A stretch of 64,000 nucleotides of DNA, from positions 25,172,001 through 25,236,000 of the forward strand of contig OZ024759.1 in the NCBI GenBank assembly GCA_964016885.1, written 5' to 3'. Numbering within the stretch: the first letter of the stretch is position 1; each line of letters begins with the position of its first letter. Positions 895 to 57,077 of the stretch are shown here, piece after piece. The DNA is from Eledone cirrhosa (taxonomy: Eukaryota). The position numbers and the translations under genes were made by a program. The notes under the pieces are model-generated. The model had not been told where the DNA came from. It ran no database searches and worked only from the letters and a program-made list of their open reading frames with translations.

Positions 895-2896
895 CATCAT
901 CATCATCATCAACGTTTAACGTCCGTGTTCCACACTTGCATGGGTTTGGACGGGGGTTTTGCCACTTGAGGCAAGAGTGATTGTCTTGCTCGCATAGGAC
1001 TGTCTGGCAGGTTTTCTACAGTTGGATGCCCTTCCTAACACCAACCACATTTACAGTGTGGGTCTGGGAGGTTTTTACCGTGTTGCCTACACGGCCACAT
1101 TACAGCGTGGACTGTGTGTTTTTTTGTCATGACACCTACACGATCTCATTTGTTTCGGCCTGGATGGTGTGGCACCAACATAACTTTACATAGAAGGGGG
1201 CGGTGTGGATGGAGTGGGGGTGGTGGGACGGGGGTGTATTTTGTTAGAGATGCCTACTGACTGTAGTAGGTTTTACTTTGTATTTAGGTAAGGCGGGTCT
1301 TCTCTATTACTGAGTACCGCCAAAGGTCTCGGTCAAGTGACATTGTCTTGGTGAGGTGTAAGTGTGTGAGGTCGGAGTTTATCAGCTCGTCCCAGGTTTT
1401 TCTGGGTCTGCCTATTCCGTGGCTACCATCTATCTTTATTGCCCTGCACTTTGTTATACAGCTATCGTCCTTCATGCGCATCACGTGACCATACCAACGT
1501 AGCCTTCTCTCTAGTAAACAACATCTAATCCCTCTTATTTCTAATTTTTTCCTTAGTTCGTTTATGCTTTGTCGTTCACGTATATTACTATTACACATCC
1601 AGCGGAGCATGCAAGCTTCGTTTCTCTCTAGTCTGTGTATATCCTCTGCACACAATGCCCAGGTCTCACTGTCATGCAACATTGCTGTTCGTATGCAGGC
1701 ATCGTACAGCCTGCCTTTCATTTTTAGGGAGAACCCTTTAGCGGCTAATAGTGGTATAAGCTCTCTGAACTTTTTCCACCCAGTTCTGACTCTAGCTACT
1801 GTACTTTCAGAGCACCCTCCCCCACTGCTGATTTTGTCACCCAGGTAACGGAAGCTGTCCACTATTTCTATAGAACCCTCTGCGCAGTTGAAATAGCTAG
1901 TATTTTGTGGGCACTTGCTGCTACTTATTGCCCCAGAACACCGGCCACATGTAAAATCTATGTTCTTAGTTAGCTTACCTGTGATCCCACTACATCTTTT
2001 ATGCACCCAAACTTTGCATTTGGGACACAAAATGGAATTTCTACCTACGCCTTTCCTACACTCTGCGCATGGCCACTTCCCGGAGGGGACCGTGGCCTTA
2101 TTTTCTTTCTTACAAACTAGAACTTTAGTCTTAGCCAGGTTAATTTTAAGGCCTTTTGATTCTAGGCCGTGCTTCCATGTTTGGAATTTCTTCTCTAGCT
2201 CGGCCATTGATTCAGCTATGAGCGTTAGATCATCTGCGTATAGGAGTTCCCATGGGCAGCCGGTCTTGAACTCCACTGTAATAGCCTGGAGGGCAATAAT
2301 AAATAGTAGGGGGCTAAGAACAGAGCCCTGATGAACACCAACTTTTACACTAAACTCTTCACTATATTCGTTGTTAATTCTAACCTTGCTGACTGTTTCT
2401 TTATACATGGCTTGTATGGCTCTCACAAGCCATTCATTAACACCTAGTTTTATAAGAGCCCACCAGATAATGGAACGGGGGACTCTGTCGAAGGCCTTCT
2501 CCAAGTCGACGAAAGCTAAGTATAGGGGTTTACTTTTAGCTAGGTACTTCTCCTGTAGTTGTCGTACAATGAAAAGAGCGTCTGGTACTTTTTCCTGACA
2601 CAAACACGAACTGCATTTCATCTAGATCAATTCGCTCTCTGATTAGTTGCGCTATTACTTTTTCCGTGACCTTCATGACCTGGTCGATTAATTTAATGCC
2701 TCTATAGTTACTCCTATCTAGGGCATCTCCTTTACCCTTATAACAGTTAACGATAATGCTGCTACGCCAGTCCTTCGGAACAACCCCATTCTGTATGACT
2801 TGGTTGACTATCCGGGTGACCATAGTGTGTCCCACCGTACCAGATGCCTTCAGCATCTCGGCAACTATTTCCGAAGGTCCAGCCGCCTTGCCTGTC
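895..2896 (-). mobile_element. RTE-clade LINE, subfamily A, 5'-truncated, frameshifted RT ORF
   Basis: ORFs 2536-2994 and 1284-2621 join across a frameshift near 2585. Motifs [70 protein letters not shown]. About 370-nt 3' UTR ending in (GAT)n; (TA)n at both ends. Confidence 0.95.
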
Positions 2897-3597
2897 ATAT
2901 ATATATATATATATATATATATATATATATATATATATATATATGTGTGTGTGTGTGTTTGTGTGTGTGTGTATGTATATATATATATATACATATATAT
3001 ATATATATGTATATATATATATGTATGTATATATATATGTATATATATATATATTTATATATATATATATATATATATATATATATATATATATATATAT
3101 ATATATATATATATATATACATATTGTTATACTTTGGGAGTATAACAATATCGGTTTCAACATATGTTTTCAGATAAAGAATCTTGCTAAACAAATTCAG
3201 AAACGAAATATATATACATATATATACATATATATATATGTATATGTGTATATATATAAATGATATATTTATAATATATATATGTATCATATATATGTAT
3301 ATGTGTATATATATAAATGATATATTTATAATATATATATGTATCATATATATGTATATAATATATATTTGTATAATATATATGTATATAATATATATAT
3401 ATAAATGATATATATATATAATATATATTTGTATAATATATATGTATATAATATATATATATATAATATATATGTATAATATATATATACATACATACAT
3501 ATATATATATATATACATATACATATATATATACATATATATATACATATATATATATATATAATATATATGTATAATATATACATACATATATATA
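2897..3597. repeat. Compound (TA)n/(TG)n/(TACA)n microsatellite with internal block duplications
   Basis: Read directly; representative of many similar tracts (e.g. 29930-30510, 34890-35180, 40708-40955, 45043-45745, 58060-58430). Confidence 0.95.
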
Positions 3598-3598
3598 T

Positions 3599-4206
3599 GG
3601 TGGCTGCCAACTCGTTTTCGAGTATGGCCACTACTTTATATCCATGTAGGAGAACCCCTACCGATGCGCTGAACGAGTGTGACTTTTTAGTCCAGCCAGC
3701 GACTTGAAAACTCTGGTACAAACACTACACTTGTGACAATTATTGACACATAGTGCTGGGCCCATGGTACCATGGGACGACAAGTGCAGAGAGATCTCCA
3801 GATATAAAGCAATGCCTGTGACGTGAAGCTTTTATAGTGAGCAAAGGCACTGCACAAAGCCAGTCCCACTCTCTTAACCAAGATGATATTTACCAAAAAG
3901 AAGAACAAGTCAACATCATTGGATACCATCAGGGTTGCAGGTGTTATATCAGAGTTTTCCTTCTCCTAGAATTCTGCCTTGACAAAGGCTAAGGGGTCAT
4001 CTCTCCCGGTGATTATGAATGGCCATTGACTCTTAAGAGCTCCTTTGCCCTTTGACAGGTTTTGTTTTTTGTCCTGCAGGATGTCCAAAGTCACCCTCCT
4101 CACCAAGAAACCTTGGTGGGGTTGCCAGTTTAGTCGCCAACGACCCGACCATGGGACAGGTTGTACTGGGATACATGTTACCAGTAGCACCAACTGGTGA
4201 CCCGAC
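3599..4206 (-). mobile_element. Non-autonomous RTE-derived element (RTE-like 5' UTR plus short 3' end)
   Basis: Minus strand has CTAGGAGAAGGAAAACTCTG, a motif I recall from RTE 5' UTRs. Shares 5' end (GTCRGGTCAC..GTGCTACTGGTAACATGTA) and 3' end (TGGCCATACTCGAWAACGAG) with 55316-55812. No RT ORF; flanked by (TA)n. Confidence 0.65.
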
Positions 4207-4649
4207 ATATATATATATATATATATATATATATATATATATATATATATATATATACATACATACATATATATACATACATACATATACATACATACAT
4301 ACATATATACACACACACACTAAACACAACATAGAAATCAGTCCAATTATGTGTCTCTTAACTGACAGTTGACATATAGACTATCCGCTGTCAAATTTGA
4401 CACTGACATGAGAATGTTCCATATTGCTGTGACAGAGCATTGGACAGGAAATTTTTAATCAATATTTCTTAGTAATATCACTTCAACCAATTCCTTATTG
4501 TAAAGCTGAAAAATTTCACTGTATTACTTTCAATTACTTAGCTATCTTTTTTAATTACTATGTTTCAATAGGTTGTTTGATAATGTTAGCTGTTAATTAG
4601 AATATACAGGGTGAGTAAACATCTTCCCAACCCTCACTCCACCAAAGTT

Positions 4650-55315: not shown

Positions 55316-55812
55316 GTCAGGTCACTCTTGAGTGCTACTGGTAACATGTAACCCAATACAACCTGTTGCAGGGCAAAAAACAAAACCTGACAAAGGGCGG
55401 AAGAACTCATAAGAGTCAACGGCCATCCAAAAGTGTGTAAATATGTATATACACATGTACATATGTATGTATATGTGTATATACATGGGTGCATGTGTAT
55501 GTATATGCATGGGGACAAAGAAATAGTCGGGCTGGACACCCGATCGTGTGGTTAAACCATTGGGAGTGAAGAACCCCTAACCTTTGTCAGAGCATTCTTC
55601 TAGGAGAAGGCAACTCAGGAAAATGGGATAACTCGTTTTGGGTTATAGCTACTGTCGCTCAGAGAGTGGGATTGGCTCAGTGCCCAGTCTTTCCTCACTT
55701 TAAAAAAATATCTTCACTCATAGGTATTGCATGATAGAATTAATTAATAATTATCAATAATGGTATATCGTGCAATGGCCATACTCGATAACGAGGGGGA
55801 AGCCATCATCAT
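55316..55812 (+). mobile_element. Second copy of the non-autonomous RTE-derived element
   Basis: Shares blocks with 3599-4206: 5' end, AAAACCTG.CAAAGGGC..TAAGAGTCAA.GGCCAT, CTAGGAGAAGG.AACTC, and 3' end; (TA)n flanks. Confidence 0.6.
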
Positions 55813-56014
55813 ATATGTATATATACATATTATATATATATATATATATATATATATGTATATATATATACATATGAATATATATATATATGTATATATA
55901 TTCATATATATACATATGAATATATATATATATGTATATATATATACATATATATGTATGTATGTATATACATATATATATATACATATGAATATATATA
56001 TATATATATATATT

Positions 56015-56435
56015 AGAAATTAGAAATTATAAGCTTTCACCGTATTTTAGACTAAAGAAATTTCTAGCCTGATAGTGGGGTTTATAACCCTCGGAGAAAT
56101 GGAAAAAGATGAGTGTTGCCGTACATGTACGGCAACACTCATCTATTTCAGAGCACCAATTCTAATTTTCAATTTCTGCTGGACCGGTGACCGCTCTGTA
56201 TAATCAGTTCCTGATTATTACTGGAATTCTATAAGAATCCAACACACATAATTTTCAGCAAACAGGAGGAGTAGTGAGCTTTGATAAGTACCAAAAAGTA
56301 CGAACCACAGCTCTGTCAGTTTATCTCCCCTGTTTGCTGAAAATTTAAATAAGTGACATTGTCACTATTTTAAAACAATAGCGTATGGTCTTCAAAATTC
56401 ATTTAATTAAGCATACAGTGTATTGCAAAATACAC
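56015..56435. other. Multi-hairpin island between (TA)n tracts
   Basis: 38-bp perfect palindrome 56107-56144; 17-bp inverted repeat ~56250-56266 / 56329-56345; shorter hairpins. Confidence 0.7.
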
Positions 56436-56517
56436 TATATATACATATATATATATATATATATATATATATATATATATATATATATATACACACACAC
56501 ATATATATATATATATA

Positions 56518-57077
56518 AGACTTGCGTATATTAGAAAGAAACGAAGCCTGCATGCTCCGATGGATGTGTAATAGTAATATATGCAAACGGCAAAGCATAA
56601 GTGAATTGAGAGAGACTGAGCATAAGAGGAATCAAATGCTGTGTGCAGGAAAGGAAGTTGTGTTGGTATGAACATGTGATACATATGAAGGATGACAGCT
56701 GCATAAAAAGGTGCAGAGCACTAGAAGTCGATGGAAGCCGCGGAGTGGGGAGACCCAAGAAGACCTGTGATGAGGTGATGAAAGCCAACCTTACCCAATT
56801 ACATGCAGTAATACAGACCCCCCCCCCCCCACGGGTACAAGCCGAAGCTGAAATATATAGCCCTCACACCCTCCCACTGCAAAGTGGACGTGTAGGCGCC
56901 ACGGAAAAAAGCACCCAGCACTCACTGTAAATGAGGTTGGTGTTAGGAAGGGCATCCAGCAATAGAAATCAAGCCAGAATCAGTTCCCGTATGAGCAAGA
57001 CATGGTCAGCCGACCGGAGAACCCATCTAACCCATGCTAGCGTGGAAGAACGGACGTAAAATGGTGATGATGATGAT
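56518..57077 (+). mobile_element. RTE subfamily C, 5'-truncated, decayed
   Basis: [35 protein letters not shown], then a 3' UTR matching the type B SINE tail, and (GAT)n; (TA)n both sides. Confidence 0.9.

Follow-up and report, generated by a model that had tools for sequence, protein, structure and literature searches.

RTE-type LINE copies between (TA)n tracts in a 64-kb window of Eledone cirrhosa DNA, probably inserted by target priming

In reviews, RTE insertion is called close to non-specific, with a weak TA preference and a 3' overlap of one to several bp, and site-specific insertion among AP-endonuclease LINEs is stated for the Tx1 and R1 clades only (PMC6007223, PMC13295347). The nearest described systems, to judge from the same passages, are the RTE-clade LINEs with a Tn-TA signature (Bov-B, plant RTE) and the Au and Sauria SINEs. 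These resemble the elements described here in their single AP-endonuclease and reverse transcriptase (RT) frame, microsatellite tail, weak TA preference and tail-target overlap of one or several bases, which has been proposed to aid priming. They differ in that they insert at scattered unique positions, leave visible duplications and have a T stretch some 10 nt upstream, whereas our elements have a (TA)n tract on both flanks and no visible duplication.

Variably 5'-truncated copies within one simple repeat are known from other LINEs, namely Dong in (TAA)n (PMC2887409), Mino in AC repeats (PMC3124438), and Togen in (TG)n along with some HERO families (PMC4640811). However, these are R4, NeSL-related, HERO or R1 elements rather than RTE, the passages concerned do not name (TA)n as a target, and the specificity of our RTE copies looks looser. 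(TA)n is the target, with variable TA lengths on both sides, of MuTAnT and of Micron and TAFT cited with it, but these are plant cut-and-paste DNA transposons with terminal inverted repeats (PMC4486113). From a probably related host, Octopus RTE-2_OV is likewise an RTE LINE with a 3' microsatellite; as described in the passages seen, it differs in carrying a C2H2 finger and lacking a PHD finger within the RT, and they mention no target preference; polymorphic RTE insertions are reported (PMC9115989). The supplements of that paper that were searched (all but four files) contained no match to short motifs of our elements. The literature searched, which left Repbase Reports and most subscription papers outside its scope, so that absence is not proven, yielded no report of an RTE with (TA)n as its target, nor of one with a PHD inside the RT. 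We regard the finding as a new form of known microsatellite targeting, a TA preference that we did not find described for RTE. Waldo is a further microsatellite-specific non-LTR element.

Copies, families and relatives

We analysed a 64-kb stretch of DNA (hereafter the window), in which five long copies and two 3' stubs of RTE-type elements lie between TA tracts (lengths given as 5'/3').

895..2896, minus strand: family A RTE-type LINE, 5' part lost up to a point in the N-terminal region of the RT, one frameshift near 2583, (GAT)6 tail; TA 48/11 bp
36006..36778, plus strand: family A copy, 5'-truncated, (GAT)8 tail; TA 12/13 bp
40956..42262, minus strand: family A copy, 5'-truncated just past the YADD motif, frame open to the stop; TA 20/15 bp
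42843..45042, plus strand: family B copy that begins in the EN-RT linker after 5' truncation, its 643-aa open frame including RVT_1 and PHD; TA 36/49 bp
44218..44349, plus strand: PHD finger lying within the RT, at residues 376-419 of P0001 (Pfam PF00628, E 4.9e-6, above the curated cut-off)
56518..57077, plus strand: family C copy, 5'-truncated; TA 17/20 bp
16216..16365, minus strand: family A 3' stub; TA 43/17 bp
47471..47578, minus strand: 3' stub resembling family A (85%); TA 20/8 bp (the latter 10 bp if the last AT of the tail is counted)

A sequence-only reading had proposed that all seven abut (TA)n at both ends, and TA/AT alternation is indeed present on both sides of each (7/7). It had also noted differing 5' truncation points, which is borne out by five distinct breaks in the long copies. 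Measured on a full-length relative, these fall at residues 532, 936, 756, 358 and 949, and the coding homology stops 0–3 bp from the 5' tract. All copies are truncated below the endonuclease, which none retains, and no upstream remainder of any copy was found within the window. Copies 36006 and 40956 are 99.1% identical, yet their 5' ends differ, which points to separate reverse transcription events. The three groups distinguished in that reading stand, but not their rank of subfamily: with only 67–77% DNA identity between them, A, B and C are better called families. All end in a short 3' UTR and tandem repeat, with tails of (GAT)4-8. The UTRs of families A and C measure about 200–340 bp, while in family B the stop codon lies a few bp ahead of the tail, as at 42843-45042 with its very short UTR and (GAT)5. 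The 3' UTR of the family C copy is common to a SINE at 15724.

We assign these copies to an RTE-type LINE lineage whose RT contains a PHD finger and whose tail is (GAT)n, the RTE label coming from architecture; no named RTE protein was among the database matches. Families A and B cluster with one database protein on a long branch (support 100/100, in a tree of unnamed relatives only). One relative, L001, on a 3.3-kb contig, has a single 1020-aa frame with Exo_endo_phos, RVT_1 and PHD, and three others (P0003, P0005 and P0006) share this layout; the four are relatives at 54–55% identity and gave no match to RNase H. A single long ORF with AP endonuclease followed by RT, and without ORF1 or RNase H, is found in the relatives. 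Searches for relatives found no endonuclease-bearing copy of the host's own clade, and scanning viral and prokaryote contigs by pattern and by protein returned zero loci.

Among relatives on metagenome contigs, none of 30 scorable 5' breaks had TA within 120 bp and none of five visible GAT tails entered TA. These loci are not a fair control, since the longest TA alternation in their 92,742 bp (all 35 loci) is 9 bp and they therefore offer no TA target. An apparent 17-bp duplication in L004 lies 1.1 kb from the element homology, is part of a longer repeat and was rejected.

Frequency of TA flanks in the window

Ten further tail-related pieces bring the total in the window to 17. They include:

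30016..30054, minus strand: family B stub, 39 bp; pure TA 3', TA/CATA mix 5'
6122..6170, minus strand: decayed family B stub; imperfect TA-rich DNA on both sides
15724..16175, minus strand: SINE with a tRNA-like head (judged by eye; ARAGORN and Rfam made no call on it) and a family C 3' tail; TA 3', CA/TA mix 5'
25570..25724, plus strand: old B-like fragment with a GAT tail; TA on neither side
37501..37686, minus strand: old C-like 3' piece; no TA flanks
52169..52389, plus strand: old C-like piece; 5' end 5 bp away from a TA tract, 3' side without one
47871..48160, minus strand: diverged GAT-tailed relative; 3' end without TA

The piece at 60635 has TA only, or mostly, at its 3' end, and a 3'-truncated SINE (29103-29369) has it solely at the 5' end. 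Double TA flanks are absent from five older, diverged pieces (25570, 37501, 52169, 47871 and 54700), with 25570 and 37501 as outright counter-examples.

TA tracts are abundant here, as the sequence-only reading had cautioned. Perfect TA of at least 10 bp makes up 5.9% of the window, and the copies themselves are clustered, so that coincidence in a TA-rich window deserves a hearing. Under a null of p=0.089, the chance that a site picked at random falls inside a TA tract of at least 10 bp or no more than 3 bp away from one, the five long copies give P(5/5)=5.5e-6. The figure of 7/7 is biased, as the two named stubs had been picked for their TA flanks. Because 25570 is a sixth coding fragment and lacks TA, the unbiased coding count is 5/6 (P about 3e-5, calculated by hand). 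Across all tail-related pieces, counter-examples included, seven of 17 are flanked on both sides, for which P(>=7/17)=3.8e-4 even though the null asks for TA on one side only; these values come from one window whose TA-rich clusters make sites non-independent. The TA flanking is real and beyond chance, in one window only, and we give coincidence almost no credence. Young copies show the preference strongly and older ones not at all; it is neither strict nor unique to RTE.

The commonest retroposon in the window, a TAA-tailed SINE, served as control: any 10-bp TA within 80 bp occurred at only one of its 15 matches, against seven of 17 RTE-related pieces (Fisher P=0.04). A GAT run by itself does not lead into TA, as none of 20 non-RTE (GAT)3+ runs, from seven places in the window, was followed by it. 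Two further repeat families are TA-embedded as well:

36792-36914, 46594-46707, 52547-52753 and 16410-16466: hairpin-ended repeat, TA on both sides in all four BLAST-linked copies
3599-4206 and 55316-55805: bipartite element, TA on both sides in both copies

An RTE label for the element carrying a C2H2 peptide at 3661-3831 was not confirmed, its matches being limited to generic multi-finger proteins.

These two families point to a host hot spot, in which fragile or exposed TA DNA (hairpins, cruciforms, nicks) draws several kinds of mobile element and RTE enters pre-existing TA with no specificity of its own. AT/TA repeats are described as forming cruciforms and breaking (PMC12972899, PMC11797062). 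Against this, the control SINE stays largely out of TA, RTE tails are intact and fixed in phase as in normal target priming, and several RTE-flanking tracts measure only 11–20 bp. TA of that length is probably too short for stable cruciforms. On balance we consider a host hot spot rather unlikely, though it is the most serious competitor.

Junctions and the route of insertion

The 3' junctions had been read as (GAT)n always running into (AT)n. This holds for most, with an exception at 16216, which reads GAT-AC-ATAT. The tail phase is GAT|A in all nine TA-followed tails, seven passing straight into AT and two via AC, for which a simple phase model gives a chance of 0.5^9=0.002. At the 5' end, wherever a longer copy of the same family permits comparison, break points share just 0–2 bp with the tract, so that no internal TA seed is needed. 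The longest direct repeat spanning the insertion is pure TA, 9–36 bp long and indistinguishable from the tract itself, in six of eight copies tested; in the other two (16216 and 30016) the flanks form no direct repeat right at the junction. No non-TA target duplication was found among the eight. The pure-TA repeats are compatible with a hidden target duplication, which in RTE elements measures about 6–20 bp.

Such flanks might instead have arisen by growth of the tract with age from a short TA target, or by deletion. With 56 TA clusters in 64 kb a tract is always nearby, RTE tails are known microsatellite seeds (PMC2887409), and a penaeid RTE-BovB is described as an (AT)n carrier (PMC7878876). 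However, the cleanest tracts accompany the youngest copies and the oldest have none, the opposite of growth with age, and a short TA target would have left a visible non-TA duplication. Growth seeded by the tail had already been discounted as a source of 5' TA, correctly in our view, as variable 5' ends carry TA with no seed inside the element. Deletion would also yield tail-less copies broken at TA, yet the sole 3'-truncated SINE, 29103-29369, ends elsewhere. Both routes seem improbable.

The pieces could also have been joined at TA by the assembly, or moved by TA-to-TA DNA recombination, without retrotransposition. Long TA tracts are hard to assemble, and the tested locus was spanned by none of the contigs listed. 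Yet the window contains no N, break points differ between near-identical copies, and the flanks of copy 36006, merely 12–13 bp, fall well inside read length; we think this very improbable. Reads from four of 17 listed runs were compared with 35800-36910, and none of the 15 joints shown (of 103) skips the element, a result that is no evidence either way because the comparison omitted the junction repeats 35966-36010 and 36745-36802. At 36148-36149 the two RAD runs show large AT-rich loose ends; these coincide with an AATT site, were taken for restriction-ligation chimeras and were set aside. Run X1 has a TA-rich consensus of loose ends ahead of 36617 (14 contigs, agreement 0.61), too weak to use. 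The TA 3' of copy 36006 doubles as the flank of a second repeat, other copies of which have TA at the same flank without RTE, which is indirect support for TA at the site before insertion.

We thus favour, as the likely explanation, that young RTE copies came to lie between TA tracts through target-primed reverse transcription at (TA)n that was already present. The AP endonuclease would nick within a TA tract, which would amount to an intensified version of the weak RTE preference for TA, and the exposed strand could then pair with AU in the RNA tail, (GAU)n, or alternatively with AU read through from the donor's own flank, and prime cDNA synthesis. The second strand would be cut a short distance away in the same tract, making the target duplication pure TA and hence invisible, and later slippage may alter tract lengths. 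A symmetric target would allow both orientations, as in the three plus-strand and four minus-strand copies. Target-primed insertion helped by AT microhomology, as first suggested, is consistent with every test within the window (variable 5' ends, GAT|A in 9/9, both orientations, unrelated GAT runs, the control SINE). To speak of a targeted family was an overstatement, given older relatives outside TA and two unrelated repeat families embedded in it.

Implications for RTE targeting

More tentatively, and with the odds against it, the copies may belong to a host-specific RTE clade with true (TA)n specificity, achieved by its endonuclease together with AU pairing of the tail or read-through RNA. 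Site-specific insertion would then have arisen a third time among AP-endonuclease LINEs, in addition to R1 and Tx1, and each insertion would duplicate part of a TA tract, feeding the TA abundance of the genome. If the hot-spot explanation is right, TA tracts are sinks for several elements, which would be less surprising. A TA-tract-seeking RTE, if true, would add to the known origins of targeting and would allow a test of whether, as has been proposed, target choice in RTE is steered by the microsatellite tail. As the target duplications of such insertions are hidden and the surrounding DNA is masked by short-read callers, RTE activity may be undercounted in genomes of this kind.

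TA tracts at the ends of the LINE copies

The window has a GC content of 35% and no N, and simple repeats are dense throughout it; perfect TA/AT runs of at least 10 bp form 56 clusters and occupy 5.9% of it. All counts reported here come from this one window. The sequence-only reading had placed copies of an RTE-type LINE between (TA)n tracts, and the pattern is real: TA alternation adjoins each end of all seven named copies, five long ones and two stubs. As had also been proposed, the 5' truncation points differ, falling at different residues of a related database protein (P0003), and in the five long copies coding homology to full-length relatives ends 0–3 bp from the 5' tract. 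No upstream remainder of the named copies was found in the window, and therefore they are truncated rather than split by a growing repeat. The three proposed subfamilies stood as three groups (A, B and C), but their DNA likeness is 67–77%, so we term them families.

Named LINE copies: family, TA tracts (5'/3') and P0003 residue at the 5' truncation
895–2896: A; 48/11 bp; residue 532
36006–36778: A; 12/13 bp; residue 936
40956–42262: A; 20/15 bp; residue 756
42843–45042: B; 36/49 bp; residue 358
56518–57077: C; 17/20 bp; residue 949
16216–16365 (stub): A; 43/17 bp
47471–47578 (stub): A, at 85%; 20/8 bp, the 3' tract being 10 bp with the tail's own AT

The LINE, its relatives and neighbouring repeats

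Copy 42843 holds a 643-aa frame with RVT_1 (E 8e-29) and then a PHD finger (E 4.9e-6, above the cut-off); copy 895 is laid out alike, its PHD match slightly below the cut-off.

44218–44349, + strand: PHD finger inside the reverse transcriptase, with a matching region also in copies 895 and 40956

This insertion is common to many database relatives across many hosts, and therefore nothing here links the PHD finger to TA; a targeted literature search found no paper on an RT-internal PHD finger of such LINEs. Matches to the element protein numbered 2564 of the 7998 scored database proteins, the best being 51–55% identical and ~1050 aa long. All four relatives tested carry AP endonuclease, RT and PHD in a single frame (with a weak PHD match in P0005) and gave no RNase H match. 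Locus L001, on a 3.3-kb metagenome contig, likewise has a single frame of this kind and closes in a similar 3' end bearing (GAT)6. The lineage has RTE architecture, from which we infer membership of the RTE clade. Families A and B joined the database relative P0074 on a long branch (support 100/100) in a tree of 30 rows (three window rows, 24 database hits and three loci), from which named RTE references were absent and for which family C was too short.

Other repeats
4656–5189, 23904–24456, 33178–33512: minisatellites, units 47–48 bp and 140 bp
46708–47460: minisatellite, ~15 units, each a short constant core joined to a (TA)n tract of variable length
15724–16175, 15238–15389, 29103–29369: SINE with tRNA-like head
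13560–14330: degenerate frames that, by eye, we take to resemble Tc1/mariner transposase

The first three minisatellites share sequence with the repeated unit of the RTE/SINE 3' UTR. The tRNA-like head runs into the family C LINE 3' UTR in two copies, and the two elements are likely a SINE/LINE pair; the same head is attached to a different body at 32135–32270 and 8889–9159.

Enrichment over chance and its exceptions

A search for all pieces related to the 3' end found 17 in the window, seven with TA on both sides (stubs 30016 and 6122, TA-rich on both sides but imperfectly so, were scored as misses); double flanks occur in five of the six fragments detected by protein homology. Under a generous null, which counts any site inside a 10-bp tract or no more than 3 bp from one, a single side sufficing (p = 0.089), the probability of seven or more of 17 is 3.8e-4, and a control SINE family had TA within 80 bp in 1/15 matches (Fisher P = 0.04 versus 7/17), both P values being optimistic because sites cluster in TA-rich blocks.

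17313–18341, 21483–22107, 62344–63034, 42583–42773: control TAA-tailed SINE family, head-to-tail arrays

The lone TA-near control copy has an ordinary ~20-bp duplication containing five TA units, and a clear ~20-bp duplication is seen at copy 42583. TA followed none of 20 non-RTE (GAT)3+ runs, at seven places in the window.

Several results count against strict targeting. Double TA flanks are absent from five older pieces (25570, 37501, 52169, 47871, 54700), which are 71–85% identical to young copies where alignable; piece 25570 lies in a non-TA tandem repeat, and an old fragment outside the 17 (33143–33197) leads into a GAT-rich array that lacks TA. A strict, evolved TA specificity is less likely than not. 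Host tracts might instead attract several mobile elements: two other repeat families are also TA-embedded, in 4/4 linked copies (hairpin repeat) and 2/2 copies (bipartite element), though both were ascertained, having first been noticed as islands between TA tracts.

36792–36914, 46594–46707, 52547–52753, 16410–16466, possibly 54931–55013: hairpin repeat, 60–210 bp, strong terminal hairpin (z -7.8), TA on both sides of every linked copy
3599–4206, - strand: bipartite non-autonomous element with C2H2 finger remnant
55316–55805, + strand: bipartite element with CAT-repeat end

The hairpin repeat, very abundant and short, is a candidate MITE-like or Helitron-like element. The bipartite copies are diverged, both between TA tracts, and the element with the C2H2 remnant may be another RTE derivative, possibly a second RTE lineage. 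The tract 3' of copy 36006 doubles as a hairpin-repeat flank, and other hairpin-repeat copies have TA there without RTE. The depth profile over four runs shows this LINE copy to be a very abundant repeat, as is its neighbour on the 3' side.

A possible mechanism and known systems

Wherever the family has a longer copy to compare, the 5' break and the tract have just 0–2 bp in common, and therefore the element supplies no TA seed there. Copies 36006 and 40956 (99.1% identity, different end points) fit separate reverse-transcription events rather than DNA copying between tracts. Three copies are in plus and four in minus orientation. In six of eight copies tested, the two flanks make up a direct repeat of pure TA, 9–36 bp long; none of the eight showed a non-TA duplication. 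The junction described as (GAT)n always running into (AT)n held in part: A follows the last GAT in 9/9 TA-followed tails, but seven pass directly to AT and two via AC. In a phase model of our own, 3/6 possible tail-target joins yield the GAT-then-A form (0.5^9 = 0.002).

The endonuclease may nick inside (TA)n, the free DNA end then pairing with AU of the tail and priming cDNA synthesis, and the target duplication would disappear within the repeat. For RTE, a weak preference for TA and a tail-target overlap of one to several bp are on record in the portions consulted (PMC6007223, PMC13295347). Metagenome relatives had TA at 0/30 breaks, on contigs whose TA runs are ≤9 bp and which are thus no fair control.

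In the sections covered, site-specific AP-endonuclease LINEs are described only in Tx1 and R1 (PMC13295347, PMC6007223), RTE sites appear not to be sequence-specific (PMC2887409) and plant DNA transposons target (TA)n (PMC4486113). That other elements target microsatellites was borne out, the accessible literature naming Dong, Mino, Togen and HERO. Penaeid RTE-BovB is tied to long (AT)n but, in the available text, interpreted as its carrier (PMC7878876). Target preference is unmentioned in the parts seen of a 2026 octopus repeat annotation (PMC13282606) and an octopus RTE paper (PMC9115989); PMC5786205 and PMC4758252, as far as covered, offer SINE background only. No RTE targeting (TA)n was found in the literature searched, Repbase Reports lying outside it.

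Insertion into pre-existing TA, whether driven by the element or by host hot-spots, is likely, and we lean towards the RTE machinery itself favouring TA. R2Ol insertion is raised when read-through RNA anneals to the target (PMC6530143, in the part seen); therefore RNA that reads on into the (AT)n flank of a donor might, by analogy, make the TA habit self-reinforcing.
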